Shown here piece by piece: positions 2,991 to 43,283 of a DNA stretch of 45,614 bases; the first letter of the stretch is position 1, and each line of letters starts with the position of its first letter. Under the pieces are notes generated by a model. That model was not told the origin of the DNA. It did not search any database and worked only from the letters and a program-made list of their open reading frames with translations. The DNA comes from a bacterium (lineage in GTDB: Bacteria > UBA9089 > JAHJRX01), in the NCBI GenBank assembly GCA_030017825.1, contig JASEGW010000001.1, positions 1 to 45,614 of the forward strand, read 5' to 3'. The position numbers were made by a program, and so were the translations under genes.

Positions 2991-3014
2991 CTTTGTTCAA
3001 AATTTTAAACAAAG
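2991..3014. repeat. Palindromic intergenic motif, copy 1 (CTTTGTTCAAAATTTTAAACAAAG)
   Basis: Read directly. The core 2994-3011 ends 18 nt before ATG 3030, with only GGAGG between. Confidence 0.9.
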
Positions 3015-10500: not shown

Positions 10501-10642
10501 TATCAGCCCTGATGCTATTTTAGCTGCGATTGAAAGAAGCCATCTTGACCCTCAAACTAAACAACTGTTAAAGGCCAAGATGGCTAGGAAAATGAATTTG
10601 TGGCAGCGACAACTTCCTACCAGAGAGTTCAGAGGGTATTAA
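4577..10642 (+). CDS. Giant 2021-aa virion/ejection-type protein with an HExxH zincin-like motif (gp16 position)
   Basis: A single uninterrupted ORF with SD AGGAGA. It has N-terminal hydrophobic Gly/Ala segments, a K/E-rich linker and HEVTH at nt 7556-7570 (about residue 994). It is the last gene of the structural arm. Confidence 0.55.
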   Translation: MTEEIFIPVEEKMGRAPEFIQGGTESFVPVGPLKSADMLDYLKEPVEWVKSGLGGLARGMGAVFKTAAVLIPGAEEILKPNITALEEATEWWEPKETAPGQVSKWVRSAAHSIGQSTTTGIIGAGVAYSAGLIGLPAMIIGAILSKGGFFGGADWYDLTKDIEKAAINAGATPEEIRILQSEFAAWKAAHAAAEVVGEIGPDLITARVIGLTGSPLIREPIKRSIMSVFGVFAKKMGWAQLAEGTGEQFTTAVQYRATEKIGLPQPSYWDQVIDTGAVTAIQTGFMAGVGISVANRTRGRSVEAFKKEMKLEMSAKLVKDGVDKDTADTIADTIIKKATKSDLVDAAIAELESREKAKKATKKERAVKKEEKKEKVVEKARETINIIMAPEAVTKEEFVEVKEEKPTAREEKLAKLTAERKTYLDSLVEQVKGLEIAGRIRVEELSTDEQQYLISKGVTFDTDRMGKPTIGYSQERRVEDLRTKVRTIREEKLAKLKGEAPTGLMLPEAELPKQEVSYIRLEPSLESPEIPNVIVKDLSGQPVVFNPDIHTLANIDKATARRDIGSWVPVAKVETTRERRIRILREAGRLPKPTVEEVTVPGERGPQIEAIAAIKKMLPGFIEHVAAMSKKGWNIEDFVNDPDVRADLEEIGVPEDRYYDLILDVKEESGAMTSVDILDKQIRDEQRRLDEDFAAIDKMKDEEAMQRFPVEVDNYYDADQKRWVQLEKENIAENIEQQFVNPPPTLEEVPIVVEVSKEKKKAFSLKVTSNTVWYLPETEAMAQLDALKRVKMDWNSDIDTILHALGIHTTAAYHTSGTVPFEALGKLRDNLDYFKKNMSNAEFAKVENTVDSLRKYMIAVSDTIKATEPTISEKAPIRLSDMEKYNSAVKKVIAEELVRLVSAGGNANSLINFILERRERFTGSQAALAEFYSSPHIRRYLEKVTMALGTGFYKSGAYYLWAGKSEGDVAGPAVVFEPFYADRGMDSVGEDILHEVTHALTAELLYDSKSFRDKVSQLRLRAMDQLGENDRRVLFGLQNDASVFHSLGFENLGFSRGWEYASIYYGLTNDREFISEVFTSPAMQEFLSAIPVETSQEGVFSSLWQKFKEILSVSIFGKPPSERESTLLDEALKIGHEVIEAQAAHAGLAYEGRERKEDAATPRIKSISIEDTLKHHPLKGSGVHAGVGGPLHQTVHIKESPIDVPVLATYVESPLFALRDHPDALKFAERAIEALGIWSYNRGIGLMEVDRMERNLSQPEREEVTSIMKEIENGEVIDLDKLDPKIKQGVIDLRKFLDLYKEKHKKFLRESLVLGANSTEARILADVLIGGNNVIDATKKWNRYARDYNLTSQDESRMATTTYANVLELLKEWKEIENFGIKDYITHAMRGSIALFDSEGRVVSFAQTKKKAVDEALRYLQQNPTIDSLTVDTTYRLDKDFQTLVSQKYYRVMKSKIAKIIDQHTKDIDKDLAERLKAVLPGRGIAIKPQKVWSQFLQEREEVLPGEKDIFDILPLYVHSIEKKHAIDPYIIQLRDHLSDFNDRPNVKKMLEDQLEAIRGQYSVGDAIVDDLMKKFGFETSFAYARGTGAARVLITNLKLGYRPVAALINLLSGMGHVWVKTSARYMIEANRMLSTKGGEDFIKKNAASLGTSIVESMGGDLENRLRWYSPLKIFQAPELPNRKLSFMTSYLFARGEFGHDEETALEFAKRSVDLQEFNYSVAAVPKIMRGPTGRTVFQFKPYLVKEIEFIRGLKGANQWAKYLTMQAVIGGPRGLMVTLKSLPVIAAIGGVGWLDELDTWLNNNYPRLSRGVFGFFGIDASAPAAFQFPEKAADWAGVLISDIVRFGKDVVQPFIDGESYIWEDIKKYTKGTIPIWRLWCDAFNGIMSEDGWILDDKGDNKYKVEDWTDILKMVGGFKPLKASVQELEVRMAEELEKRERKQANKIVEQIVKRSRMIDVEIVTDELIEEVGTHAISPDAILAAIERSHLDPQTKQLLKAKMARKMNLWQRQLPTREFRGY

Positions 10643-11178: not shown

Positions 11179-11202
11179 CTTTGTTTAAAATTTTAAACAT
11201 AG
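11179..11202. repeat. Palindromic intergenic motif, copy 2
   Basis: CTTTGTTTAAAATTTTAAACATAG. The core 11182-11199 lies 13 nt from start 11168 (minus strand). Confidence 0.9.
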
Positions 11203-15842: not shown

Positions 15843-15866
15843 CCTTTGTTTAAAATTTTAAACACA
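15843..15866. repeat. Palindromic intergenic motif, copy 3
   Basis: CTTTGTTTAAAATTTTAAACACAG. The core 15846-15863 lies 12 nt from polymerase start 15833. Confidence 0.9.
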
Positions 15867-15873
15867 GTTATCG

Positions 15874-16191: not shown

Positions 16192-17538
16192 CTAAATACT
16201 ATAATCATAGCTCTTATACCTCCCAAATCTCCCTTCGTGTACTCTTAGCATAAAGGAGTCTTTATATTCCCGACTCAACTCATACCCAAAAGCCTGCATT
16301 CCTAAGTTAGACGCAGCCAGTAGTGTATTTCCACTCCCAAGAAACGGAACCATAACTCTACTTCCTGCATTAGCAAATGTACTTAAAATATCCTCCATCA
16401 TTTCAATAGGCCGCTCAGTTTGATGTATACGTCTTGCTGGAGCAACCCAAGGGAAGTCAAACAAGTTTGATCTTGTTTTTTTAACAATCCCACTTCCTTT
16501 GTGTGCATAGAAAAACATTTCGTAATCATTAGATAGGTATAAATCTGGCTGCATAGTTTGGCCCCTTGGTTTCGCCCAGATTCCAGGAATTCTCCTACCT
16601 TTAAATCCAACCTGTCTCATCATTTGATAAACTGGATCGAACCAGGGCTCAGGTCCAAACCAGGCTATAATCCAGCCACTTGGAGATAATACTCGGTAGC
16701 ATTGTTGAATAGTTTTCAACATAAAACTTGGATATTCATCTTCCATAACCTCATTATAATACTTCATATGAGGCTCTCTTGGCCCCCTTAGCTTTCTGAC
16801 TGAAAGTAAGTCTATCGCATATGGAGGATCTAACTCAACAAGGTCGATTGAGCCATTAGGTACGTTTTCTACCTCTTCATGAAAGTCTCCAATTATAAAG
16901 CTATCACACAGCTTCATCAGTTCAACAGGTACACTTCCCCTGTTCTCTTCAACCCTTTTAGCCAGTTCAGCTTTGACAAGCGTCTCCTGCATCATCATTA
17001 ACAGTTTACGAGCATCATCTTTCGTTTTACATTCACGAAGTTCAGGAATTTTCTCAACAGCATGCGCCAGCATTATATCTCCAACGATACTTGCAGGACT
17101 TTTAACTAATAATGAAGCAGTATCACGCTTACTCCACCCCTTTGCACCTGGACTTGTTGAAGTTTTTTCACCATGAATTGCTACTTGTAGATTATGTATC
17201 TGCTCACACAACCTTATTTTCTCAAGCCATGATAGGTCGAGACGATGCATATTTTCGGCTAACTCAATACTTTTATGCTCAAACTCTGTTAATTCTCCGT
17301 GGTAAATTCTACAAGGGATTAATTGAGTATTGAGTTCTTTTAGTGCCCTATATCGTCTACCGCCGGCTAGTAATAGATAGCCAGTTGAAGTTTGTTTTAC
17401 TGCGATTGGCTGAATGATGCCTTCAGCTTTAAGTGAAGCCTTCAATTCTTCTAAGTTTCCGTAGTCTTCCCTTGTTCTTTCACCTTCACTAATCAAATCT
17501 ATAGGAATCATATCAAGTTTAACTTCGCCCAAGCTCAT
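16192..17538 (-). CDS. ParB-like nuclease domain fused to a beta-class DNA methyltransferase (N6A/N4C type)
   Basis: The N-terminus reads IQPIAV...LLAGGRRYRALKEL. DPPY comes before the FLGSGNT AdoMet motif. The AGGAGG SD fits ATG 17538, which overlaps the upstream TGA. Confidence 0.8.
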   Translation of the reverse strand: MSLGEVKLDMIPIDLISEGERTREDYGNLEELKASLKAEGIIQPIAVKQTSTGYLLLAGGRRYRALKELNTQLIPCRIYHGELTEFEHKSIELAENMHRLDLSWLEKIRLCEQIHNLQVAIHGEKTSTSPGAKGWSKRDTASLLVKSPASIVGDIMLAHAVEKIPELRECKTKDDARKLLMMMQETLVKAELAKRVEENRGSVPVELMKLCDSFIIGDFHEEVENVPNGSIDLVELDPPYAIDLLSVRKLRGPREPHMKYYNEVMEDEYPSFMLKTIQQCYRVLSPSGWIIAWFGPEPWFDPVYQMMRQVGFKGRRIPGIWAKPRGQTMQPDLYLSNDYEMFFYAHKGSGIVKKTRSNLFDFPWVAPARRIHQTERPIEMMEDILSTFANAGSRVMVPFLGSGNTLLAASNLGMQAFGYELSREYKDSFMLRVHEGRFGRYKSYDYSI

Positions 17539-17753
17539 CACTGTCCTCCTAATAATGCAGCTAATTTTCTCTTCTGCTCTAAACTTAATCCATCCAATAA
17601 CTTATCCATAGAGGCATCTGCTTTTGCAGCTGCTTTTTTGACAGCTGGCTTTTCCTTCTTCATCCTTCTACTCGCTCTTAACTCCAAAATTTTAGCTTGC
17701 AGTTCCTCAGTTGACATTTGACTAATACTTTTTTTGAGTTCTTCAAGTATCAT
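17538..17753 (-). CDS. Small lysine-rich hypothetical protein (71 aa)
   Basis: SD GGAGGTG. No motif recognised. Confidence 0.5.
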   Translation of the reverse strand: MILEELKKSISQMSTEELQAKILELRASRRMKKEKPAVKKAAAKADASMDKLLDGLSLEQKRKLAALLGGQ

Positions 17754-17928: not shown

Positions 17929-18147
17929 CTATTTCTCCTTTGCTTTAAGCATGCTGAGGAATTTGATTTTCTTACATGTTATCATAGTTATTGCTAACTC
18001 ACCATGCTCATTTAAAAGCTCAATCAACTCATCTACTATAGCACTAAATAGATGATGTTTTAAGCCCCACGGAATTAACCTACGAAGAGCCTCATCCTGC
18101 TTCTCTGTGATCTCCACGTTTAAACGAGGAGGATTTTCACGTTCCAT
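17929..18147 (-). CDS. Small DNA-binding protein candidate (ribbon-helix-helix-like N-terminus)
   Basis: RLNVEITEKQDEALRRL resembles an RHH strand-helix. SD AAGGAGG. The call is weak. Confidence 0.35.
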   Translation of the reverse strand: MERENPPRLNVEITEKQDEALRRLIPWGLKHHLFSAIVDELIELLNEHGELAITMITCKKIKFLSMLKAKEK

Positions 18148-18415: not shown

Positions 18416-18529
18416 GTCTCCTCCTTTCACTTAATTGCCCCCGTGTTGTCTCCGTTTGAGATCAACTTTGGTTTCACCTCCCGCAGCAGGACGCTACGCC
18501 GACGAGGGCAAAAATTATTTCTAGGGTAA
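18416..18529 (-). promoter_or_regulatory. G+C-rich, potentially structured 5' leader between palindrome copy 4 and the next start codon
   Basis: About 114 nt of noncoding sequence. An 8-bp long-range helix (GCCCUCGU / ACGGGGGC) encloses about 57 nt that contain smaller hairpins. No riboswitch class recognised. Confidence 0.3.
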
Positions 18530-18553
18530 CTATGTTTAAAATTTTAAACACAG
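18530..18553. repeat. Palindromic intergenic motif, copy 4
   Basis: CTATGTTTAAAATTTTAAACACAG, core 18533-18550. Confidence 0.9.
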
Positions 18554-18557
18554 TTTA

Positions 18558-23455: not shown

Positions 23456-23483
23456 AACTGTGTTTAAAATTTTAAACACAGTT
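23456..23483. repeat. Palindromic intergenic motif, copy 5 (perfect 28-mer AACTGTGTTTAAAATTTTAAACACAGTT)
   Basis: Read directly. The sequence is self-complementary over 28 nt. Confidence 0.95.
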
Positions 23484-24948: not shown

Positions 24949-24972
24949 CTTTGTTCAAAATTTTAAGCAGAG
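24949..24972. repeat. Palindromic intergenic motif, copy 6 (degenerate: CTTTGTTCAAAATTTTAAGCAGAG)
   Basis: Read directly. The core is 24952-24969. Confidence 0.8.
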
Positions 24973-25001
24973 GTGAGCTCCCTTTTGGGGAGTCCACCTC
25001 T
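24969..25001 (-). terminator. Intrinsic terminator candidate after the gene at 25021..25371
   Basis: A G+C-rich hairpin (AGAGGTGGACTCCCC AAAA GGGAGCTCACCTCT on the minus strand). It is followed by the U-rich arm of palindrome copy 6. Confidence 0.55.
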
Positions 25002-25859: not shown

Positions 25860-26174
25860 TTATGTTCTTCCAAACGACTCAATCAGATTTTCTAACTCCT
25901 CTTGAGAGTTTTTCCTTCTATTCAGAGCAGCTATTAATGCATCTTTTACTTCATCTTGAATAGGCACATGGAAGCCGACTCTTTGCAAAAACTCTTCTGC
26001 TTGCTCTTCAGTAAAAGGGAAGTCGGTAGCGTTGAACATCTTCTCAGCTACACGAATAGCAACATCGACAACGTCTGCTGGTCTATTTATTGCCAGTCCA
26101 GCAAAGTGTATCGCCTTAACAAGTGATGCCAGTTGTGCAACTGTTACCCTAATTTGTAAATTAATTTTTCTCAT
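25860..26174 (-). CDS. Early hypothetical protein (104 aa)
   Basis: It is the first ORF downstream of the consensus promoter at 26206-26234. Confidence 0.5.
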   Translation of the reverse strand: MRKINLQIRVTVAQLASLVKAIHFAGLAINRPADVVDVAIRVAEKMFNATDFPFTEEQAEEFLQRVGFHVPIQDEVKDALIAALNRRKNSQEELENLIESFGRT

Positions 26175-26205
26175 AGTTGTGAAGCCCTCTACCTTTCATG
26201 GGTGC

Positions 26206-26234
26206 ATTATAACATATTTGGACTGAGATGTCAA
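26206..26234 (-). promoter_or_regulatory. Consensus sigma70-type promoter (TTGACA-17-TATAAT with TGn extended -10)
   Basis: Minus strand: TTGACA tctcagtccaaatatgt TATAAT. The -35 element overlaps the stop of the upstream gene. Confidence 0.7.
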
Positions 26235-26605
26235 TGTCTATCTTCCAACTTCATATGTGAAAGCCTCCACTCCAACAGATGAGCTGGCAAACCTACTATC
26301 TCTGCAACTTCCTCCATATACTTCTTCACTTCTTCAGTATTCTTAAAGTTAACGTAGTAAAAGCCATATTCATTTTTCCCACTTGGAAAGTGAAGCTGCA
26401 TAGGAATAAAATTTTTGTCAAGTATGGCTTGCGCCTCTGGAGTTTTTCCAGATATGAGGAGAACATTTTCCTGCTCTACTATCTGAACAGTCATCTCCTC
26501 TATAATGTCTTCGTTAGCCTTAACTAAGGTAACAAAAGCAGTTGCCACTCCAATCTTTTTAAAGTATTCTACTGTTTCTGGCTTGAAGACGTTTTCTGCT
26601 TTCAT
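26231..26605 (-). CDS. Hypothetical protein (124 aa)
   Basis: SD AAGGAGAG. Confidence 0.5.
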   Translation of the reverse strand: MKAENVFKPETVEYFKKIGVATAFVTLVKANEDIIEEMTVQIVEQENVLLISGKTPEAQAILDKNFIPMQLHFPSGKNEYGFYYVNFKNTEEVKKYMEEVAEIVGLPAHLLEWRLSHMKLEDRH

Positions 26606-26744
26606 GCTGCTCTCCTTTCTTATGTCTACTTACTGCATCATCAAACATCTTTAAGTTTCTGTTGTCAGTCTTCTTTGATATGATGCATCTTATTCCATTA
26701 TGAAGAGCGACTTCAATTCTCATTTTCTTTTTGATCTCTTTCAT
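26559..26744 (-). CDS. Possible small basic protein (61 aa)
   Basis: ATG 26744 has SD GGAAGGGG. It overlaps the next gene's start by 47 nt. The upstream part of the track ORF looks non-coding. Confidence 0.35.
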   Translation of the reverse strand: MKEIKKKMRIEVALHNGIRCIISKKTDNRNLKMFDDAVSRHKKGEQHESRKRLQARNSRIL

Positions 26745-26875
26745 ATATGCACCCCTTCCACTACTATAAGTGGCTCTCCTAATAAGAATAAGAGCATTGT
26801 TAACAAATATAGAATGGAAAGTACAGCCATTGTGAAACCAAGCCCAAAAAAGTATCCTTTTATAAAATCTTTCAT
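26741..26875 (-). CDS. Small hydrophobic membrane peptide (44 aa), below the ORF-track cutoff
   Basis: I translated it by hand: MKDFIKGYFFGLGFTMAVLSILYLLTMLLFLLGEPLIVVEGVHI. SD AAAGGAGGTG. Its stop overlaps the next ATG (ATGA). Confidence 0.5.
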   Translation of the reverse strand: MKDFIKGYFFGLGFTMAVLSILYLLTMLLFLLGEPLIVVEGVHI

Positions 26876-26887
26876 AACACACCTCCT

Positions 26888-27091
26888 TTATCCCATTAGT
26901 TTGATATACGCTTCCTTGAGGAAGGAGTATTTATAATACTGCCCCCTGCCAGGGCCTATTCCAACCCCAACCTCTCTATGACATGATAAGCACATATTAG
27001 CCCAAAAGCCAAGAGTAGTTTTTCCATCAACGTACTTAGTCAACTCCTGAGCCCTATATGTTTGACACCTTTTGAGCTCTGGATCGTCCAC
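26888..27091 (-). CDS. Early hypothetical protein (67 aa)
   Basis: A GTG start with SD GGGAGG lies 12 nt after palindrome copy 7. Confidence 0.5.
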   Translation of the reverse strand: MDDPELKRCQTYRAQELTKYVDGKTTLGFWANMCLSCHREVGVGIGPGRGQYYKYSFLKEAYIKLMG

Positions 27092-27100
27092 GTCGCCTCC

Positions 27101-27124
27101 CTTCGTTTAAAATTTTAAACACAG
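27101..27124. repeat. Palindromic intergenic motif, copy 7
   Basis: CTTCGTTTAAAATTTTAAACACAG, core 27104-27121. Confidence 0.9.
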
Positions 27125-27143
27125 TTGCCATATTTTCACGTCC

Positions 27144-27172
27144 ATTATATCAGAAATTTGATGGAATGTCAA
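27144..27172 (-). promoter_or_regulatory. Consensus sigma70-type promoter (TTGACA-17-TATAAT)
   Basis: Minus strand: TTGACA ttccatcaaatttctga TATAAT. It lies between palindrome copies 7 and 8. Confidence 0.75.
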
Positions 27173-27200
27173 GTCCTTATTTAATTTTATTTACGACTCC

Positions 27201-27224
27201 CCTTGTTTAAAGTTTTAAACAAAG
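27201..27224. repeat. Palindromic intergenic motif, copy 8 (CCTTGTTTAAAGTTTTAAACAAAG)
   Basis: Core 27204-27221, with one central mismatch. Confidence 0.85.
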
Positions 27225-27254
27225 CTAATGACTCTTTGGAGGGTCATTAGCTTT
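27221..27254 (-). terminator. Intrinsic terminator candidate after the gene at 27268..27495
   Basis: A 12-14 bp perfect stem (AAAGCTAATGAC / GTCATTAGCTTT). On the minus strand it is followed by UUUGUUUAAAACUUU, which is the arm of palindrome copy 8. Confidence 0.6.
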
Positions 27255-27267
27255 GGCTGGCTGTTAC

Positions 27268-27495
27268 TTAGAATCCTGCGAGCTTTTTGGCATTCTTGTT
27301 CCAGGCTCGCTTCCACTTAGGAAGCTCCTCTCGATCATTTGGCACGCTTGGTAAATTGAAGTATGGGTTAATAATATCTCCCACACCTTTTTCCCAGTAC
27401 ATTGCCAGCCTTACCAACTCCCTCATAACATCATCGTTTTGAGCAGCTTTGTAAGCCAGCTCTGCCAGCCTTCTCCTAACTATACTCTGCTTCAT
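27268..27495 (-). CDS. Hypothetical protein
   Basis: ATG 27495 has SD AGGGAGGTG. The track start is 27513. Confidence 0.5.
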   Translation of the reverse strand: MKQSIVRRRLAELAYKAAQNDDVMRELVRLAMYWEKGVGDIINPYFNLPSVPNDREELPKWKRAWNKNAKKLAGF

Positions 27496-27515
27496 TTCTT
27501 CACCTCCCTTCATTC

Positions 27516-27728
27516 TTATTCTAACTTCCTTTCTATATAGAAGATTCCTACTCCATCCTTTAATTCAAATCTCATTCGGTATTGACCACTACCAAAAAGG
27601 ATAACTTCATTAGCAGTCAATCTATTTATTAAGTTATCCTGCTTCTGTCTTGTCCTTACTCCTTTAGAAGTTAACCACTCCCTAAAACCAGGAGCGGTAT
27701 TAAATCCTGAAACATAAATCCATTCCAT
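27516..27728 (-). CDS. Hypothetical protein
   Basis: ATG 27728 has SD GGAAGGAGG. The track start is 27746. Confidence 0.5.
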   Translation of the reverse strand: MEWIYVSGFNTAPGFREWLTSKGVRTRQKQDNLINRLTANEVILFGSGQYRMRFELKDGVGIFYIERKLE

Positions 27729-27730
27729 CT

Positions 27731-27919
27731 TCAATCCTCCTTCCACTTTAATTCAACTCCCATTTTTTGAAAGTCTTCGAGAACTTTCCTTCGGGTTTCT
27801 TTAACTGTCGTTTCAACCCATTCAATTCGATTATCTCCGCAAGCGTGAGGCTTTGGGTTGTCATATTGCAGGAACCGAATATTCCCGCAGCCGATGCAAA
27901 CAGCCGGCTTTTGGTTCAT
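27731..27919 (-). CDS. Small Cys-containing (zinc-ribbon-like) protein
   Basis: CIGCG...HACG. SD AAGGAGGTG. Confidence 0.5.
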   Translation of the reverse strand: MNQKPAVCIGCGNIRFLQYDNPKPHACGDNRIEWVETTVKETRRKVLEDFQKMGVELKWKED

Positions 27920-27962
27920 CTAATTTTCACCTCCTTTTTTTATTCATTGAGGTTGCATTAAA

Positions 27963-28174
27963 CATGATACATGAAACATATAGGGGGGCCTCCGTTTCCA
28001 ATGTTTGTGAGCATAGTTACCAAGTGTATATGTATACTGTATATACACAGTATATATATATATATATATTCTTTTTTTTTATTTTTTTTTTAAAAGAAGA
28101 TATACCCATATACCCCGTAACTATGCTCACACGCATACGAAAACGGGGGGGGGGTCTATGTTTCATATATCATG
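27963..28174. repeat. Imperfect 58-nt inverted repeats flanking an AT-rich low-complexity core; origin candidate
   Basis: The arms are 27963-28020 and 28117-28174. They share CATGATA(C/T)ATGAAACATA and TGTGAGCATAGTTAC in inverted orientation. The core holds a TATACTGT/ACAGTATA hairpin, (TA)9 at 28051-28068, T9-A-T10 at 28072-28091 and G10 at 28145-28154. No credible ORF. Confidence 0.6.
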
Positions 28175-28250
28175 CATTATGCGCCATGCATTACTTTTTA
28201 TGTTGAAAGTCGCTTCAAATGGCAGGGTATCTCTGTTATACATGTCTGTG

Positions 28251-28625
28251 TTATTTGTCTGCTTCTGTGGCTTCTGCAGCTTCTATAGATGCCATTATCT
28301 GCTTCAGCAAGTCCTTCTGGGCATCCTTGTTTAGCTTTCTGACATCTTTAAATACGGCATCAACTGTGACAATTTTGGCTTCTCGAACTCCGATGGGCTT
28401 CACAATAATTCTGACCGTGGAGCCAAGTTCACGGAGTTTGTCATTATACCTCAGTGCATTCTGCTGCGTAATTCGCCGTGGCCTCAATGCGAGTTCGATT
28501 ACATCCTCAATCGTGCAACCTGATAAGTCGAACTCCATATCGAGTTTGACTGGCTCTTCGCCGTCGGGAGTGATGACGGCAGGCAATGACCTAACAACTC
28601 CCGTTAACTTTTCATTCAAGTTCAT
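28251..28625 (-). CDS. Isolated hypothetical protein (124 aa) in a G+C-richer island
   Basis: SD AAGGGAGG. It is the only gene between the inverted-repeat region and the divergent promoters. The antisense track ORF 28219..28644 is judged spurious. Confidence 0.55.
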   Translation of the reverse strand: MNLNEKLTGVVRSLPAVITPDGEEPVKLDMEFDLSGCTIEDVIELALRPRRITQQNALRYNDKLRELGSTVRIIVKPIGVREAKIVTVDAVFKDVRKLNKDAQKDLLKQIMASIEAAEATEADK

Positions 28626-28806
28626 GGTTGGTACCTCCCTTTGATTTTAAAGAGATACCCCTCCACGTCAAGCGACTTTCGGTTGGGCTCAGATATTTTT
28701 AGGTTTCGCTCAGAGGCAGCACGTCCATTCCATCATCTCCCTATAGTAATGTTCAAGGGATCATTCGGCTGCTTGCCTACTCCCTATTGTCATTGCATCA
28801 AATTGT
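28626..28806 (-). promoter_or_regulatory. Predicted ~180-nt 5' leader of the 124-aa gene
   Basis: It spans from the predicted transcription start, just downstream of the -10 element at 28813-28818, to ATG 28625. It has no ORF with an SD. It contains two TAGGGAG repeats and two CUGAGC repeats. Confidence 0.35.
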
Positions 28807-28812
28807 GACGGC

Positions 28813-28841
28813 ATCATACCATGGCTGAATTGAAAAGTCAA
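28813..28841 (-). promoter_or_regulatory. Strong sigma70-type promoter (TTGACT-17-TATGAT with TGn)
   Basis: Minus strand: TTGACT tttcaattcagccatgg TATGAT. Confidence 0.65.
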
Positions 28842-28953
28842 GGGTGGCCGGCCTGGGTGGGCATGGTACTCACGCCTCCAGCGCAACCGATAAAACAAGA
28901 TTTACAAACTTTTTAATGTGTACATTTTCGTACTATTCACCTGCGATTCATTT

Positions 28954-28982
28954 ATTATAACTCTGTTTAAAATTTTAAACAA
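28954..28982 (-). promoter_or_regulatory. Sigma70-type promoter whose -35 element and spacer are formed by palindrome copy 9 (TTGTTT-17-TATAAT)
   Basis: Minus strand: TTGTTT aaaattttaaacagagt TATAAT. Confidence 0.5.
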
Positions 28983-28984
28983 AG
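28961..28984. repeat. Palindromic intergenic motif, copy 9
   Basis: CTCTGTTTAAAATTTTAAACAAAG, core 28964-28981, located in the divergent control region. Confidence 0.9.
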
Positions 28985-29116
28985 CTGTATATATTTCTTA
29001 ATAGTGGAATAATATAGCTGCGCTGAATGTAGAAATATAGATATGAGGAAACCTAATGTGCATTCCTACTATTGAAAAAATTAGGGTTCTATCTAAGAAT
29101 GTACAACTTTTGCCTA

Positions 29117-29145
29117 TTGACTTCTTTAACCGAATGTGTTATAAT
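29117..29145 (+). promoter_or_regulatory. Near-consensus sigma70-type promoter for the rightward arm (TTGACT-17-TATAAT with TGn)
   Basis: TTGACT tctttaaccgaatgtgt TATAAT, 30 nt upstream of ATG 29175. Confidence 0.7.
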
Positions 29146-29174
29146 CCTAATATAATTAATATTGTGGGAGAGTT

Positions 29175-29759
29175 ATGAAGCCATCAGAAATGTTAGGGCT
29201 TAAAAAGTGTGTAGGTAAGAAATATGGAAAGTTAACTGTAGTAGGTTACTATCCATATCCAGATGGAAAAGGGCCCAGGTGGATTTGTAAGTGTAATTGT
29301 GGAAAAGATCATATTGTGAGAGCTATTTTTCTAAAAAGAGGAGATGTTAAGAGTTGCGGTTGTATAGCAAGTGAAAACGCTAAGCCACCAAAACTTGAAG
29401 TTGGAGAAGCAGCTAAAAATAGTACCTATTTACAGTATAAACTTCAAGCTGCTAAGAGAGATTTCGACTTTACACTAACATTTGAGGAATTTGTAAAACT
29501 GGTTTCATTATCTTGTTATTATTGTGGAAGACCACCCTCAAATATAAAGAGAGGACACAATGGAGACTTTATCTATCAAGGAATTGATAGAGAAAATAGT
29601 GAGATAGGATATACAAGAAGTAATTCAGTTCCTTGTTGTAAAACTTGCAATATGGCGAAAGGTACTATGAGTCATATAGAATTTATAGCTCATATTATAA
29701 GAATGTATAAATACTCAGTGGAAGATGTGAGGAGAGATGGATACTCGCTTCAATCATGA
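29175..29759 (+). CDS. HNH endonuclease with an N-terminal Cys-rich region
   Basis: KYGKLTVVG...WICKCNCG...SCGC, then CYYCGRPPSN...GIDREN...PCCKTCNMAK. Confidence 0.65.
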   Translation: MKPSEMLGLKKCVGKKYGKLTVVGYYPYPDGKGPRWICKCNCGKDHIVRAIFLKRGDVKSCGCIASENAKPPKLEVGEAAKNSTYLQYKLQAAKRDFDFTLTFEEFVKLVSLSCYYCGRPPSNIKRGHNGDFIYQGIDRENSEIGYTRSNSVPCCKTCNMAKGTMSHIEFIAHIIRMYKYSVEDVRRDGYSLQS

Positions 29760-30222
29760 GGGTAGAAGGTACCAAATACAGCGTCTATGGAATATCCATT
29801 ATGAGATAATGAGGCTGGCTCTCATTGGTAGGAAGGCAGCTGATATTGCCAGAGAGCTGGGCGTGACTGAAGTGATGGTTTCTTATACTCTCAATTCTGA
29901 GTTGGCAAAGCGCCGAATGGAAATTATGAGAGGGGTGAGGGATGCAGAGGCGCTTGATTTATCAATAGAGATCAAAAGGTTTGCACCTGAAGCTTTTAAG
30001 TTATTGAAAAAGGTGTTAAGAGAGTCAGATAGTGAAAAGAATAAAATTGTAGTCGCTCTTGATGTTCTTGATAGAGCTGGGTATGCTCCTCCGAAGGTTA
30101 TTGAAGGAAGGTTTATGCATGCTCACTTTACAGCTGAGGAGATTGAAGAAATGAAGAAGCGGTCTAAGGATTCTGGTCAGGTAGTAGTTGAAGGGGAACT
30201 GGTGGAGTCTAATTCTATTTAA
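29737..30222 (+). CDS. HTH DNA-binding protein; terminase small subunit candidate
   Basis: HTH sequence GRKAADIARELGVTEVMVSYTL, followed by the LDVLDRAGYAP pattern that is common in small terminases. It lies 2.8 kb from the large subunit gene, so the call is tentative. Confidence 0.4.
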   Translation: MDTRFNHEGRRYQIQRLWNIHYEIMRLALIGRKAADIARELGVTEVMVSYTLNSELAKRRMEIMRGVRDAEALDLSIEIKRFAPEAFKLLKKVLRESDSEKNKIVVALDVLDRAGYAPPKVIEGRFMHAHFTAEEIEEMKKRSKDSGQVVVEGELVESNSI

Positions 30223-32726: not shown

Positions 32727-33007
32727 AGACACTTGACATTGTCCATATAGTTTGGAGAGATGCATTAAGTAACTCTGTGTTTTGGGAGGATTTGGATGAT
32801 GTTGTAGATTCCCTCGAAACGGAAAGAGATTTAATGGAAACAGTTGGACAAATAGTTGAGGTTGATAAACGATATGTTACTATAGCACACTCAATGCATT
32901 ATGACAGCTCTGGAGCTATAGCAAAAGCTGGCGGAGTTCTTTCAATTCCAGTTGGGTGTGTTATTAAAATGAGGAAAATAAGTGGGCCAATTAAGCGAAA
33001 ACTTTGA
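32723..33007 (+). CDS. Hypothetical protein (94 aa)
   Basis: A GTG start overlaps the holin stop. No motif recognised. Confidence 0.45.
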   Translation: MKTLDIVHIVWRDALSNSVFWEDLDDVVDSLETERDLMETVGQIVEVDKRYVTIAHSMHYDSSGAIAKAGGVLSIPVGCVIKMRKISGPIKRKL

Positions 33008-34481
33008 TATTAGAACGCCAGAGATAAAGATGATTATTGAGGCGTGTGTTGGAAACACTAAGATGACATCAAGAGTCATGTTTCCAGATCGCTTTACGTT
33101 ACCATTTAGTAAGATGCATGATCAGCTATTTAATGTGTTAGATGATGATTTAAAACAGCAGGTTGTAATTGCTGCTCCTCGGGGATTTGGTAAAACAAGC
33201 ATTGGTATGTCTTATCAGGCTGGTAAGATTATTTTTAGAGAGAAGAAGTTTATAATTCCCTGCAGTGCCACTGCCTCTCAGGCTCTTCTTCAGGGTGAAA
33301 ACTTGAAACGTGAACTTCTTTCAAATACCATTATTGGTAGGCTATTTGGGCCAATGAAGAGTTCAATGTTTAGTCAAGATCAGTGGATAACTGAGACAGG
33401 TACAATGGTAATGCCAAGAGGTAGCGGTCAACAGATTCGAGGTTTGCTATTTGGAAATTATAGGCCTGACTTGATCTTGTTAGATGACATTGAAGACAGT
33501 GAAAGTGTGAAGAGTGAGGAACAGAGAAAAAAGTTGAAGGAGTGGTTCTTTGCAGATGTTATGAATAGCGTCAATAGATCAAGAAAGGATTGGAAGGTTG
33601 TTGTTGTAGGTACATTGTTGCACGAAGACTCGTTATTAGCAAATCTGTTGGATGATAAAAATTGGCATCCAGTTCAGTTAGAGTTATTTGATGATGACTA
33701 TCACTCTAATTGGCAGGAGTTCATGACTGATGAGGATGTTGCTAAATTGGTAGATGCGTATAGAAAGCAGAGGATGCTTGGTACTTTGTTTAGGGAGTAT
33801 AGGAATTTACCAGTTGCAAAAGAAGATGCAAAATTTAAATCAGAGTACTTCAAATATTACACTGAGAACCAAAAGAAGCAGGTTCAAGAGACAGTGGTTA
33901 TAATGGATCCTGCAAAAACTGTTAAGGCAACAAGTGATAATAGTGCGGCGGTTGGTGTTGGTCTTGATATGGTAAATCATAGAATTTTGGTACTGGATGT
34001 GGATTCTGGAAACTATCATCCAGATGAGTTCATTAGCAAATCATTAGACATGTGTAAAAGATTAGGTGCAAGGGTACTAGGGTATGAAGAGACATCTCTT
34101 CATGAGTTTATTAGTTATCCATTAGAGAATGAGATGAAGAAGAGAGGAATGAATCTGGATTTAGTACCATTATCTGCAAGAGCAAGTAAGGAAGAGAGGA
34201 TTGCATCATTAATTCCTTTTTATCGACAAGGTGAAGTATATCATAATGCTACAGCATGTGGTGCTTTAGAGTCACAATTAATGTCATATCCGAGAGCGAA
34301 AAGGTGGGACTGTATGGATGCACTTGCATATATCGTTCCACTACTTGAAAAAGGTGAGAGGTATTTCTTTGCAAAAGATGAAAAGGCAGTTGAGGCAGAG
34401 TTCGCTACGATTGAGAATAAGGAAGAGGATTATGAAATTCCTCCTGATGATGGAGAGTTTGAGGGGTGGAGGAATATTTAG
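32982..34481 (+). CDS. terL: Terminase large subunit
   Basis: Walker A AAPRGFGKTS, Walker B LILLDDIED, and a C-terminal RNaseH-like nuclease region (VVIMDPA...). The product is 499 aa. Confidence 0.85.
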   Translation: MGQLSENFDIRTPEIKMIIEACVGNTKMTSRVMFPDRFTLPFSKMHDQLFNVLDDDLKQQVVIAAPRGFGKTSIGMSYQAGKIIFREKKFIIPCSATASQALLQGENLKRELLSNTIIGRLFGPMKSSMFSQDQWITETGTMVMPRGSGQQIRGLLFGNYRPDLILLDDIEDSESVKSEEQRKKLKEWFFADVMNSVNRSRKDWKVVVVGTLLHEDSLLANLLDDKNWHPVQLELFDDDYHSNWQEFMTDEDVAKLVDAYRKQRMLGTLFREYRNLPVAKEDAKFKSEYFKYYTENQKKQVQETVVIMDPAKTVKATSDNSAAVGVGLDMVNHRILVLDVDSGNYHPDEFISKSLDMCKRLGARVLGYEETSLHEFISYPLENEMKKRGMNLDLVPLSARASKEERIASLIPFYRQGEVYHNATACGALESQLMSYPRAKRWDCMDALAYIVPLLEKGERYFFAKDEKAVEAEFATIENKEEDYEIPPDDGEFEGWRNI

Positions 34482-34505
34482 CTATGTTTAAAATTTTAAA
34501 CAAAG
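34482..34505. repeat. Palindromic intergenic motif, copy 10
   Basis: CTATGTTTAAAATTTTAAACAAAG, core 34485-34502, starting 1 nt after the terminase stop. Confidence 0.9.
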
Positions 34506-37625: not shown

Positions 37626-37649
37626 CTATGTTTAAAGTTTTAAACAAAG
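37626..37649. repeat. Palindromic intergenic motif, copy 11 (CTATGTTTAAAGTTTTAAACAAAG)
   Basis: The core 37629-37646 ends 15 nt before portal ATG 37662. Confidence 0.85.
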
Positions 37650-37661
37650 TGGAGATATAAA

Positions 37662-39632
37662 ATGGCAGTAACATTGCATGTTCCATCTGAATTAGATCAC
37701 GCAGCTCTTGATGCAAGAGCTAAGAATATTGTATATACCTATCCAAATAGTGAGGAAGGAAAAGAGTTAGACTTGCGGCCTGGCTCTGATCTGCATGAGA
37801 AAATTAAAAGTGCAGTAATTACTCGTGCACAGGATAGTTATAATATTATGAAGAGAAAGCATGATAACTGGAATCTTGTTGACCAGACACTGACTGCATA
37901 TATCCCACTTGATGAAAAAGAAAGAGCATTAAAGAAAAGAGATCCGAGGAAGCCCGTCTCTATCGTAGTCCCCTACACCTACGCCACGATGGAAACACTC
38001 CTTACCTACCTCGTAACGGCTTTCTTGGATCTCCCTATCTTTCGATATGAGGGTGTTACCTCAGACGATACGATTGGTGCTATTATGCTGGAAAAAGTGG
38101 TAGAGTTGCAGACAGTTAAGAATAAGATTGGATTGGCTCTACACACTCTATTCAGAGATGGATTAGCATACGGCTTTGGCGTTGGACTTCCTTTGTGGAG
38201 TGAGCACTGGGGGTATAAGACTGAAAGATTGCCTAATGGCATTAAGGCAAGAGCAAGAAAGAGGCTGTTTGAAGGCAATAGAGTTGAAAATGTTGATCCA
38301 TATCTTTATTTACCTGATACAACTGTTCCAATTCATAAAGTTCAAGAGGGTGAATTTACTGGATATGTTGATCGCACTAATTATATATCATTGTTAGAAA
38401 TGGAAGCAATTAATCCTAATGACTTCTTCAATATAAAGTATTTAGATGGAATGGATGGTGGAAGTACTTGGTTTGGGTCTGAGGCATCTATGAGAGACAG
38501 AAAGCAGGATGTCAACACTCGTACTTTAGATATCCATTCTTCAACAAGTCCTGTAGATGTAGTTTGGATGTATATGAAACTGGTTCCTTCTAATGAGTGT
38601 TGGAAGCTTGGAAAATCAGAAGTTCCTGAAAAGTGGCTATTTGGAGTTGCTGGAGATCAGATTGTAATTTATGCAAAACAGCTTGGATTAGATCATGATA
38701 TGTTTCCAACTGCTGTATTCGCTCCTGATTATGATGGCTACTCAGTAGCACCAGTAAGTAGGATGGAGATGATTTATGGTATGCAGAATGTTCTTGACTT
38801 TCTATTTTCGAGCCATGTGGCTAATGTTCGAAAAGCTATCAATGATATGCTGATAGTTGATCCATTCTTGATTAATATGGAAGACTTGAAAGATCCTGAG
38901 CCTGGTAAACTTATTAGGATGAGGAGGGCTGCGTGGGGTCGTGGAGTTGAACATGCTGTTGCTCAGTTAAACGTGAATGACATTACTCGTACTCATATTA
39001 GTCAGGATGCTCCTTGTGTGATAGATTTGATGCAGAGAACAAGTGCTGCTGTTGATAGTTTGATGGGTATTATGAGAACATCTGGTGAGCGAAGAAGTGC
39101 AACTGAGGCAAGGGATTCAAGGATGAGTGCACTCTCAAGATTGGCAAAGACAGCAAGAATTTGTAGTTTGATGACAATGTATGATCTCGCATATATGATT
39201 GCCAGTCAGACTCAGCAGTTAATGTCTCAGTCAGTATTTATTAATACTATGGGGGTGCATCAGCAAGAATTAATTGAGGAGTATGGGCAGAATAGAAAGA
39301 TGCAAGTTGATCCTACAAAAATAGATATCAATTATGATATTGTAGTTCATGATGGCACGGTTGATGTAGGTGAGAGAGCTGATTCATGGGCTACCTTGTT
39401 TCAAATTTTATCTTCACAGCCTGCCGTTGGAGTTGGTTTTGATATGGTTAGGGTGTTTAAGCATCTGGCAAGAATGTTAGGAGCTAAGAATGTTAATGAG
39501 TTTGTGCGGAAGGGTGGGGGAGTGAACATTCAGACAATGCAGACTGAGGAAGTTTTACAGCAGGCAAATAGAGGTAATCTTGTCCCTGTAGGTGGAGAGT
39601 TAGGAGGTCAAGGTGGCACTGAAGTCGAGTAA
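37662..39632 (+). CDS. Portal protein
   Basis: The product is 656 aa. Its position is upstream of scaffold and capsid. The call rests on size and synteny only. Confidence 0.7.
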   Translation: MAVTLHVPSELDHAALDARAKNIVYTYPNSEEGKELDLRPGSDLHEKIKSAVITRAQDSYNIMKRKHDNWNLVDQTLTAYIPLDEKERALKKRDPRKPVSIVVPYTYATMETLLTYLVTAFLDLPIFRYEGVTSDDTIGAIMLEKVVELQTVKNKIGLALHTLFRDGLAYGFGVGLPLWSEHWGYKTERLPNGIKARARKRLFEGNRVENVDPYLYLPDTTVPIHKVQEGEFTGYVDRTNYISLLEMEAINPNDFFNIKYLDGMDGGSTWFGSEASMRDRKQDVNTRTLDIHSSTSPVDVVWMYMKLVPSNECWKLGKSEVPEKWLFGVAGDQIVIYAKQLGLDHDMFPTAVFAPDYDGYSVAPVSRMEMIYGMQNVLDFLFSSHVANVRKAINDMLIVDPFLINMEDLKDPEPGKLIRMRRAAWGRGVEHAVAQLNVNDITRTHISQDAPCVIDLMQRTSAAVDSLMGIMRTSGERRSATEARDSRMSALSRLAKTARICSLMTMYDLAYMIASQTQQLMSQSVFINTMGVHQQELIEEYGQNRKMQVDPTKIDINYDIVVHDGTVDVGERADSWATLFQILSSQPAVGVGFDMVRVFKHLARMLGAKNVNEFVRKGGGVNIQTMQTEEVLQQANRGNLVPVGGELGGQGGTEVE

Positions 39633-41809: not shown

Positions 41810-41836
41810 GCCCCTGGGCCACTCAGGGGCTTTTAT
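41810..41836 (+). terminator. Rho-independent terminator
   Basis: GCCCCTG gggccact CAGGGGC followed by TTTTAT. Confidence 0.7.
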
Positions 41837-41858: not shown

Positions 41859-43217
41859 ATGCCTGACAATGCTTTTTTAGGAATGCGTGGAACTGGTGAT
41901 TGGGCTACAGACCAGAGGCCAAAATCTTGGAGAGAATTAATTCTCTTCTTATATCCAAATGGTTCTGTGCCGTTGACAGCAATTATGTCAAAGATGAAGG
42001 AAGAGAAAGTGACTGATCCACAGTACTACTGGTGGACGAAGAAACTACCGGAACAGGCTGGGGCGGTTACAAACGTTTATACTAATAGTGGACTGAGTGC
42101 TCTTTATAGTGCTACATATCCAAATGGTGGAACTGGAGCGGCGGCTGGATTTACTGTCTATGTGAAGATGGCTGAGTTAGCTGCATCTGAATTTAGAGTG
42201 GGACATCAGGCTCTTATGAGATGTTTGACTGATTCTTATTTAGATGTGAACGGTAAAGTTACTGCTCGGACTTTGGCTGGTGCAAATTCTTACCTAACTG
42301 TTAAGTTACTGGAAGCTGACGATAACAGCTTTGGAAAGTTCGGAGCTCAGGGGCGCACCCTCGCAGCCTGTAACCGAATCATGGTTGTAGGTAATATCAA
42401 TGAGGAAGGTGCTGTAATGCCTGGCAGTCTTGGGTATAACCCTGTAAAGTATTTCAACTATACCCAGATTTTCAGAACGCCTCTAAGCATCACTCGTACA
42501 GCTCGGGAAACGAGACTTCGTACTGGCGATGCCTATAAAGAAATGAAGCGTGAAGCTCTGGAACTGCACGGTATTGAGATGGAGAAAGCACTCATCTTTG
42601 GAATTCCAACTGAAAATGCTGGGGGATCTTCGGATCAGAAACCTGAGAGAACAACTCAGGGAATTGCTAGTTTCATTAAAGCCTATGTTGCTGCTAATTT
42701 CGATGATTATCGGCTGAACTCTGGTTATGCGGGTAAAGCTTGGGATGCAGCTGATGGTGGAGAAGCCTGGCTTGATTATTTCCTGGAGCAGGTTTTCAGA
42801 TTTGGTAGTGCTGAGAAGTTGGCCCTTTGCGGTTCTGGTGCTCTTTTAGGCCTGAATCAGTTGGCGAGGAGTGGTGGACATATTAACCTGGAGCCACGAG
42901 CTGCTGCTTATGGTATCAAGGTTATTGAGTGGATCACACCTTTCGGTAGCATCTACTTAAAGACCCATCCCCTTATGAGCCAGGAAGTAACTACCCGCAA
43001 TGCCATGATTCTTCTTGAGCCTAAGAATTTAGTTTATCGGTTCATCACTGATACAATCTTCTTTGGTGAAGGTGAGGCAAAGCAGGCTGGGCCTGGAACT
43101 AACAGTGGCCGTAAAGATGCCACAAATGAGGAGTTCTTGACTGAGTGTGGTCTTGAGCTGTGGCATCCCGATACCTTCATGATGCTTGATGGAGTCGGTA
43201 AAAACAGTGCTGTTTAA
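41859..43217 (+). CDS. Major capsid protein
   Basis: The product is 452 aa. Its gene follows the scaffold and decoration genes and is followed by a terminator hairpin. The call rests on position and size. Confidence 0.7.
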   Translation: MPDNAFLGMRGTGDWATDQRPKSWRELILFLYPNGSVPLTAIMSKMKEEKVTDPQYYWWTKKLPEQAGAVTNVYTNSGLSALYSATYPNGGTGAAAGFTVYVKMAELAASEFRVGHQALMRCLTDSYLDVNGKVTARTLAGANSYLTVKLLEADDNSFGKFGAQGRTLAACNRIMVVGNINEEGAVMPGSLGYNPVKYFNYTQIFRTPLSITRTARETRLRTGDAYKEMKREALELHGIEMEKALIFGIPTENAGGSSDQKPERTTQGIASFIKAYVAANFDDYRLNSGYAGKAWDAADGGEAWLDYFLEQVFRFGSAEKLALCGSGALLGLNQLARSGGHINLEPRAAAYGIKVIEWITPFGSIYLKTHPLMSQEVTTRNAMILLEPKNLVYRFITDTIFFGEGEAKQAGPGTNSGRKDATNEEFLTECGLELWHPDTFMMLDGVGKNSAV

Positions 43218-43234
43218 CAATTAACCTATGCAAG

Positions 43235-43266
43235 GCTGGCAGCTGGAAGTGGCTGTCAGCTTTGTT
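43235..43266 (+). terminator. Terminator candidate after the capsid gene
   Basis: GCTGGCAGC tggaagtg GCTGTCAGC, followed by TTTGTTC. That T-rich run is the left arm of palindrome copy 12. Confidence 0.5.
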
Positions 43267-43283
43267 CAAAATTTTAAACAAAG
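43260..43283. repeat. Palindromic intergenic motif, copy 12
   Basis: CTTTGTTCAAAATTTTAAACAAAG. The core 43263-43280 ends 13 nt before ATG 43294. Confidence 0.9.

Follow-up and report, generated by a model that had tools for sequence, protein, structure and literature searches.

The stretch of DNA analysed here (contig JASEGW010000001.1, positions 1 to 45,614; 45.6 kb, hereafter the window) appears to be a near-complete podophage genome, in which two arms of genes run apart from 27.9-29.2 kb and meet near 10.64 kb, the two-arm layout reported for LUZ24/tf-type phages (PMC3517423). No DNA similarity to deposited phages was found for positions 26000-30000, the closest cultured relative of the capsid protein stands at 49% identity, and no lysogeny genes were detected in the podophage. 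A short palindrome recurs between its blocks of genes, and two copies lie on either side of P27172, a host-type early promoter. A preliminary description of this DNA had noted the pair, and it is indeed present: the cores GTTTAAAATTTTAAAC (27105-27120, perfect) and GTTTAAAGTTTTAAAC (27205-27220, one central A>G) are 100 bp apart from centre to centre, and with the +1 set 7 nt past the -10 hexamer their centres fall at about -75.5 (copy 8) and +25.5 (copy 7) relative to the presumed P27172 start. The two palindromes look like ordinary members of a 12-copy, genome-wide set and not like a private switch of P27172, because they are only 2 of 12 copies that lie between gene blocks throughout the genome. 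The set as a whole is read here, tentatively, as a series of protein-bound boundary elements between transcription modules.

The element measures 24-28 bp, the 28-bp duplex form being AACTGTGTTTAAAATTTTAAACACAGTT. Exactly 12 copies occur in the window when the 16-mer is allowed up to 3 mismatches, against 0.82 expected; the 24-bp form CTnTG-TTTAAAATTTTAAA-CAnAG also gives 12 copies at no more than 2 mismatches over 22 specified positions and none at 3-5, and a scan with this extended form found no isolated half-sites in the window. The palindrome is the sole repeated motif there. All 12 copies are intergenic, within the 6.4% of the window that lies outside the gene list based on open reading frames (ORFs) (p~5e-15), and they occur on both genome arms, late-gene junctions included. 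Nine of the 12 stand at intercistronic junctions remote from sigma-70-like promoters, some of them in the late arm (before the portal gene, after the capsid terminator and after the terminase gene). The core starts 4-12 nt past the upstream stop codon in seven copies, and in seven it is followed after 13-19 nt by the next start codon. Most copies occupy an intercistronic gap or a 5′ leader, where they run up to the Shine-Dalgarno sequence or overlap it. Their flanks are polar with transcription (CTATG upstream, CAAAGG downstream), since the right flank doubles as the Shine-Dalgarno sequence. Several copies have no gene following them, namely 27205, 28965, 18534 (followed by a 100-nt gap) and the tandem copies of two relatives, L056 and L204. 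A hairpin directly precedes three copies of the window. The preceding operon ends in a hairpin, and copy 8 comes straight after it in the direction of transcription; this hairpin was seen by direct reading, was not flagged by the terminator scan and falls under the energy cut-off of the hairpin count. The gap after copy 4 (18431-18557), downstream of the SSB-like gene, is likewise present in a 74% relative (L085 9288-9388) and may hold a small unannotated gene or RNA. The coordinates of the copies and of other features are given in Table 1.

Table 1. Palindrome copies, promoters and selected genes of the window, with Fibrobacter loci that carry the related repeat.
Feature	Position (strand)	Description
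Copy 1	2991-3014	Between late genes 2041-2982 and 3030-4568
Copy 2	11179-11202	Ahead of RNA-ligase-like gene 11168-10629
Copy 3	15844-15867	Immediately before DNA polymerase gene; minus-strand form ACTGTGTTTAAAATTTTAAACAAAGG
Copy 4	18530-18553	8 nt past stop of gene 19040-18558; then ~100 nt without a called gene
Copy 5	23458-23481	Perfect 28-bp palindrome, flanks included
Copy 6	24949-24972	Just past G+C-rich hairpin (~24969-25001, -) closing early operon; ahead of lysozyme-containing module
Copy 7	27101-27124	CTTCGTTTAAAATTTTAAACACAG; between P27172 and ribosome-binding site of gene 27091-26888
Copy 8	27201-27224	CCTTGTTTAAAGTTTTAAACAAAG; among the most degenerate copies; 32 nt upstream of P27172 -35 hexamer
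Copy 9	28961-28984	Divergent control region; ~180 bp upstream of P29117, ~166 bp upstream of P28841
Copy 10	34482-34505	Core 4 nt past stop of large terminase gene
Copy 11	37626-37649	Immediately before portal gene
Copy 12	43260-43283	Immediately past terminator hairpin (~43236-43259) behind major capsid gene
Hairpin	27221-27254 (-)	AAAGCTAATGAC-N10-GTCATTAGCTTT; behind gene 27513-27268, abuts copy 8
P27172	27172-27144 (-)	TTGACA-17-TGaTATAAT; host-type (sigma-70-like) early promoter, score 12/12, between both cores
P26234	26206-26234 (-)	Second perfect TTGACA-17-TATAAT with TG; no palindrome within 900 bp
P28841	28813-28841 (-)	TTGACT-17-TATGAT with TG; serves 124-aa gene 28625-28251
P29117	29117-29145 (+)	TTGACT-17-TGtTATAAT; head of late/structural arm
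DNA polymerase gene	15833-13287 (-)	Family A; N-terminal uracil-DNA-glycosylase (UDG)-like domain
ParB/methyltransferase gene	16192-17541 (-)	ParB N-terminal domain fused to N6/N4 DNA methyltransferase; fusion kept in 25 related loci
72-aa core protein gene	17929-18147 (-)	PRLNVEITE...IPWG...; ribbon-helix-helix-like pattern; candidate binder only
Large terminase gene	32982-34481
Portal protein gene	37662-39632
Major capsid protein gene	41859-43217	SU10-type
Fibrobacter repeat loci		L098, L109, L130 (2453 and 7947), L144, L150, L178, L181, L182, L189, L194

Capsid- and polymerase-based searches recovered ~70 related viral contigs, and in close relatives the same motif stands at syntenic junctions: at the end of the early operon before the lysozyme gene (counterparts of copy 6 at L054 464, L085 2040 and L204 6434), after the SSB-like gene, beside the DNA polymerase gene, before the portal gene, past the capsid terminator and in the divergent region. 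The arrangement of capsid terminator followed by palindrome is kept in lineages A and B, and a strong hairpin directly precedes 15 of 113 copies, the post-capsid terminator of both lineages and the early-operon end among them. More distant lineages carry palindromes of other sequence: GTTCAAAwTTTGAAC, GGTAAA-w5-TTACC, GGTGAAAwTTTCACC, GAGYGGTCAAAGTTTRACCRCTC, GGCTTGTTCAA-N4-CGAACAAGCC, AGTCRTGATAAAAAATATCAYGACT, GTGTAAGAAwTTCTTACAC and TGTTTAATwATTAAACA, with GGTCAAAGTTTGACC, TGATA-A5-TATCA and GTAAGAAwTTCTTAC as further forms. Most of them have CTnTG/CAnAG flanks and stand just ahead of ribosome-binding sites. The design is shared, with 5-bp half-sites around an A/T-rich 5-bp spacer (6 bp in the lineage of the window) that is fixed within a lineage, and change is concerted, every copy in one genome shifting together to a lineage-specific form.

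This variation bears on whether the signal is read as DNA or as RNA. The half-sites degenerate independently of each other, with Y at set left positions and R at the mirror right positions. Among 135 copies from ~25 genomes, oriented by the local coding strand, sense-strand mispairs of the G·U type numbered 73 and those of the A·C type 91; there is no G·U excess over A·C, and RNA pairing therefore does not seem to be under selection. From these two features we infer that the palindrome is a site for a dimeric protein on duplex DNA and not an RNA hairpin. In one relative (L067) the half-sites are kept and a 7-bp centre is free to vary. A role in RNA, as a hairpin 5′ of the ribosome-binding site that serves as processing site, stabiliser, translational operator or antitermination (nut-like) signal, would suit the intercistronic and leader positions at the Shine-Dalgarno sequence, the 12-bp stem that extended forms could make and the similarity to the inverted repeats that precede gene starts in Cluster K mycobacteriophages (PMC3203893). 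Against it stand, besides the mispair counts, the lack of co-variation at the n positions of CTnTG/CAnAG, the retention of copies with two sense-strand C·A mismatches (L054 464, L071 4146/12756), and the placement of 27205, 28965 and the tandem copies of the divergent region, which lie upstream of the nearest promoters or behind terminators. The stem is also A/U-rich with no U-tract behind it, and neither the window nor the Fibrobacter elements described below matched an Rfam family. We give this role little credence.

Strong sigma-70-type promoters with a TG extension were found only at 27172, 26234 and 28841 on the minus strand and at 29117 on the plus strand. None lies beyond 26.2-29.15 kb, and promoter-like matches elsewhere equal the expectation from shuffling. 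Perfect TTGACA-17-TATAAT promoters with TG occur twice, against 0.027 expected in order-1 simulations, and P28841 is conserved in relatives (L056 5126-5154, L204 1173/1236). The preliminary description had further proposed that copy 9 supplies part of a promoter at 28982-28954 (-). That sequence, TTGTTT-17-TATAAT, matches only 3/6 positions of the -35 hexamer, falls below the scan threshold and is not conserved; the true promoter for the gene to the left of copy 9 is likely 28841-28813.

If 27105 and 27205 (and 28965) were operators, a regulator bound to them would shut off early promoters by occlusion or through a 100-bp loop. The geometry around the consensus promoter is real, and a copy near +25 could block P27172 transcripts. 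The DNA helical repeat in vivo is ~11.1 bp/turn, at which 100 bp makes 9.0 turns, whereas at 10.5 bp/turn it makes 9.5 turns and the sites face opposite sides of the helix, so that the helical phasing claimed for the pair is ambiguous. The window, L056, L062 and L204 all have an upstream copy that ends 21-32 nt short of the -35 hexamer, and L024 has a copy near +31. The 21-32 nt gap is filled with A/T-rich, UP-like sequence and the copy marks the end of the preceding unit, so that tight packing accounts for the recurrence as well as coupling does. In L206 an orthologous promoter (TTGACAtttccatcaaaatctgaTATAAT, 474-502), 27/29 identical to P27172, drives the orthologue of gene 27091-26888 (48% identity, E 2e-23); no palindrome lies between that promoter and the ribosome-binding site, and none in the 473 nt upstream. 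L056, the closest relative (~80% protein identity), has a copy 29 nt ahead of a TTGACA promoter, which leads straight into its gene, and the nearest downstream copy is 242 nt from +1, past the whole gene. Most consensus early promoters across relatives have no copy within 200 bp, and neighbouring copies in relatives are spaced by 34, 42 or 314 bp, not ~100. The divergent control region holds two tandem copies 34-42 bp apart in L056 (4914/4949) and L204 (975/1017), and one in the window (28965); the L056 pair (4909-4968) flanks a small G+C hairpin (GGCCGCTTCGGCC), and the L204 pair occupies 975-1032. Within the window itself only one of the four strong host-type promoters, P27172, is bracketed, and the nine copies remote from promoters count against operators as well. 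We therefore consider the operator reading improbable. The earlier suggestion that a protein binding the palindrome shuts off the early promoters stands only in part: the sequence does look like the site of a two-fold symmetric protein, but not like a dedicated early-promoter operator pair acting by looping or occlusion.

The palindrome is not confined to phages. An exact 18-mer scan covering one genome per species listed 118 matches, at least 11 of them in Fibrobacter genomes (38-55% G+C), where by our own estimate ~0.001 per genome would be expected by chance; the remaining matches listed look like single matches in A/T-rich genomes. Fibrobacter chromosomes carry multiple copies of an intergenic repeat of ~125-155 nt that has ~20-bp terminal inverted repeats and the 16-mer as its invariant core, laid out as AAGTAKRACTTT..TGTTG ... 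GTTTAAAATTTTAAAC-N10-CTTCAACAYNAAAGTKCTACATMGCC. Three sequence types of the repeat can be told apart, each genome has several copies, and the palindrome is internal to the element; one type carries the minus-strand form of copy 3, a 26-nt identity that includes the flanks. Two repeat copies enclose one operon of the Fibrobacter 'major paralogous domain' family. Two tandem copies of the element (5802, 5949) also occur in an unrelated viral contig, L001. Literature searches on Fibrobacter phages or repeats returned nothing relevant. The shared sequence suggests that the core is read by a factor present in Fibrobacter or common to its mobile elements, and because the core is common to the phage and the Fibrobacter repeat, the podophage host is probably Fibrobacter.

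A repeat with terminal inverted repeats around the same core raises the question of some other DNA transaction, such as nicks of the tf/LUZ24 type, recombination hot-spots for module exchange or a selfish palindromic repeat. The convergent two-arm layout is that of the LUZ24/tf group, to which the capsid protein is distantly related, several genes beside copies have no homologue in close relatives, and the flank AACT(R)TG is similar to the tf nick consensus TACT/RTGMC (PMC3517423). However, tf sites are one-strand and non-palindromic (PMC3517423), while the ACTRTG flank here tracks the coding strand on both arms, and nicks on both strands 18-20 bp apart in perfect palindromes would break the genome. 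The excess of variable genes beside copies is not significant (4/10 vs 4/22), and syntenic sites with concerted lineage change favour a trans-acting reader over independent insertions. This is the least probable of the readings weighed here.

We favour, tentatively, a reading of the palindrome as an element that binds a protein and marks the boundary between transcription modules. This reading draws on the operator-like dyad, the position at 3′ ends and behind terminators, the tandem copies between divergent arms and the analogy with the host repeat. Most likely, a two-fold symmetric, sequence-specific protein encoded by the host or the phage would bind each copy as duplex DNA; the half-sites, 5 bp each, face successive major grooves on either side of a narrow A/T-rich spacer, a design that suggests a DNA-bending protein. 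Once bound, it would act as an insulator or roadblock that limits or sets RNA polymerase read-through between modules, and it would reinforce the hairpin terminators that copies often abut. The bracket at P27172 would then be an incidental outcome, with one copy closing the preceding operon (~-75) and one heading the next gene (~+25). Both the binding of a protein and the direction of its effect on transcription are what we infer from the sequence. A bolder form of the idea is that one dimeric protein reads the dyad at every module boundary across the podophage family, with at least eight specificities, the phage having borrowed the site of a host architectural protein or the host repeats responding to a phage protein; we think this unlikely, though not negligibly so.

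When a lytic phage has conserved motifs scattered between its genes, these are usually promoters (T7, T4 late and middle, phiEco32), and the palindromes might instead be phage-specific (middle/late) promoters or restart sites, at which a phage-redirected host RNA polymerase starts within or just after the palindrome and short leaders would begin at the CAAAGG flank. The palindrome is after all the only repeated motif in a genome where ~40 kb of genes lack a sigma-70-like promoter; across lineages, copies head modules directly behind the early-operon and post-capsid terminators, and the flanks are polar with transcription. That polarity is nevertheless accounted for by the Shine-Dalgarno function of the right flank, and the dyad symmetry, the independently degenerate half-sites and the lack of a -10-like element at a constant position across lineages all speak against a promoter. 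So do the short distance to the start codon (13-19 nt past the core in seven copies), which leaves no space for a separate core promoter, the copies without a following gene, the internal position of the palindrome in the host repeat and the failure to detect a sigma factor or RNA polymerase in the ORFs scanned. Promoters or restart sites are thus a serious but rather unlikely alternative. Two variants were tried and rejected: a reading of the palindrome as a -10-like element, which fails across lineages, and MerR-like or class I/II activator geometry, which is incompatible with 13-19 nt before start codons.

Several points weigh against a boundary element. A roadblock before replication, portal and tail genes needs relief or only partial action, the layout of terminator, palindrome and gene is equally expected for a restart promoter, and any palindrome is also able to form a hairpin or cruciform. 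RNAalifold predicts pairs in the Fibrobacter element that are all invariant, with no covariation, so that the element holds no variation by which function in DNA could be separated from function in RNA. The binder of the palindrome was not found among the proteins scanned. Most of the ORF list (not every ORF against every library) was compared with Pfam, PHROGs or NCBIfam, and these scans returned no sigma factor, helix-turn-helix regulator or repressor family; neither the ORFs scanned nor PDB searches revealed a phage RNA polymerase or sigma factor/appropriator. The candidate with a ribbon-helix-helix-like pattern, the 72-aa protein, belongs to a conserved replication module present in 22 loci, and its AlphaFold2 (AF2) model (pLDDT 81) shows an extended N-terminus and helices. 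It gave no family match and no Foldseek match, and a PDB profile search returned only a weak match to the ArgR winged helix (E 0.1), with one member weakly matching ParD. Its presumed DNA-reading beta-strand is identical in lineages with different half-sites, and it was not matched in L076 by tblastn or motif scan. The conserved last early protein (116 aa) gave no match and no fold match (pLDDT 68). Searches of PDB with the 124-aa control-region protein returned designed-protein noise only. Resemblances to the consensus sequences of Fis, IHF, CRP and parS each suit one lineage and fail in others, and none is claimed. The outer bases of the palindrome (TGTTT...AAACA) are similar to parS, yet half-sites differ in other lineages.

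Other features of the genome deserve mention. Between the 124-aa gene and the first early genes lies a large imperfect palindrome (27955-28182) with 82-nt arms (27955-28036 / 28101-28182) that are 71% complementary; the arms carry G-runs, and the centre a (TA)n run with long T/A runs. Its architecture and the inner arms GTGAGCATAG/CTATGCTCAC are kept in the 80% relative (L056 5722-5947), and it may serve as a replication origin or packaging site or mark a genome end. The major capsid leader (41810-41830) holds a conserved hairpin, GCCYCTG-N7-CAGGGGC, that the window scan scored as terminator-like and whose L016 counterpart (9950-9970) has a sense-strand U·G pair; in relatives a palindrome copy lies just upstream of it, and none does in the window. 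The first gene of the late arm (29175-29759, +) encodes an HNH/endonuclease-VII-like protein, the same region of which also matches the PHROG families 'decoy of host sigma70' and 'Srd anti-sigma factor'. In the DNA polymerase, a uracil-DNA-glycosylase-superfamily domain (residues 18-176) is fused to 3′-5′ exonuclease and family-A polymerase domains, and an HNH ORF (13429-12941) overlaps the 3′ end of its gene by 143 nt. The ORF at 4577-10642 (+) encodes a 2021-aa protein with glycine-rich hydrophobic segments near the N-terminus, whose conservation reaches 26% identity in L055; it is probably an internal or ejection protein. The possibility that it is an N4-like hairpin-promoter RNA polymerase was rejected, with no Pfam/PDB match, one D.D.D string (DIDKD at 1467) and no DxDGD-type metal-binding motif.

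Taken alone, the bracketed promoter would be a routine operator story, and the wider pattern is the more useful one: a compact, sharply defined element marks each module boundary in an uncultured podophage family. It offers a handle on how small lytic phages that depend on the host RNA polymerase keep 40 kb of genes in order with only three or four promoters. The concerted change between lineages provides a natural series of matched site variants, a possible source of orthogonal regulator-operator pairs, and the core shared with Fibrobacter points to a host for an uncultured phage group and ties phage regulation to host repeats. If true, such family-wide punctuation would give lytic phages a layer of regulation that has not been described for them. 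The palindrome set is a fresh instance of the theme of dispersed intergenic regulatory repeats, with a putative function and an unexpected counterpart in the probable host.

Known systems resemble the set in part, most closely the start-associated repeats of Cluster K and the stoperators of Cluster A mycobacteriophages. Looping operators (lac, gal, ara, lambda OL-OR) consist of two symmetric sites that are promoter-specific and conserved in spacing; the flanking of P27172 at ~100 bp is alike, whereas the two sites here belong to a scattered set of 12, and a relative lacks both the pair and its spacing at the orthologous promoter. Plasmid RK2 has palindromic KorA operators (GTTTAGCTAAAC) and 12 KorB sites, some at promoters and some distant. 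The likeness lies in a dozen operators on a mobile genome and in KorA half-sites, GTTTA/TAAAC, that are those of the palindrome, with a spacer of 2 bp in RK2 and 6 bp here; the resemblance to KorA is possibly chance, because other lineages use other half-sites, and the phage protein with a ParB N-terminal domain is a methyltransferase fusion for which operator binding is putative. Among host repeats, the RIB/RIP elements of E. coli (a BIME with an IHF site, at 3′ ends of transcription units) and the Correia elements of Neisseria contain the site of a DNA-bending protein. The Fibrobacter element is similarly multi-copy and intergenic with an invariant A/T-rich core, and the phage copies lie at 3′ ends of transcription units, but the palindrome core is a perfect dyad where the IHF consensus is asymmetric, and the phage has the core alone and not the whole element.

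Among phage systems, the nick sites of tf/LUZ24-like phages likewise repeat a short consensus ~9-14 times at scattered positions of a podophage genome whose two arms converge, with a partial ACT/RTG match (PMC3517423). They are on one strand only, non-palindromic and not confined to gene junctions (PMC3517423), and the palindrome is the opposite on each count. The extended start-associated sequences (ESAS) of Cluster K mycobacteriophages, whose function was still unknown in 2025 (PMC3203893; PMC12699233), are many imperfect inverted repeats just upstream of the ribosome-binding sites or starts of a subset of genes, with a sub-lineage-specific consensus and positions conserved between relatives, all of which holds for the palindrome. 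They differ in having two 17-bp arms around a variable 4-13-bp spacer, usually with an asymmetric 13-bp SAS (GGGATAGGAGCCC), and in being limited to the non-structural arm of temperate actinobacterial siphoviruses; the palindrome is one compact 24-28-bp dyad with a fixed spacer and no second asymmetric motif in the window, and it occurs on both arms, structural genes included. Cluster A stoperators (L5 gp71 type) are also tens of copies of a short site in short intergenic regions on both arms, bound by one regulator that also acts at the early promoter, with a block to elongation and lineage-specific evolution (PMC9283540, PMC6550527). Stoperators are 13-bp asymmetric sites for a monomeric two-domain repressor that silences a prophage, while the palindrome is symmetric, with a repressor and a block that are both putative, and belongs to a phage that is apparently lytic; nor is there a single orientation of the stoperator kind, as the core is a dyad and only the flanks are polar. 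The palindrome thus differs from both ESAS and stoperators in symmetry, distribution and phage type.

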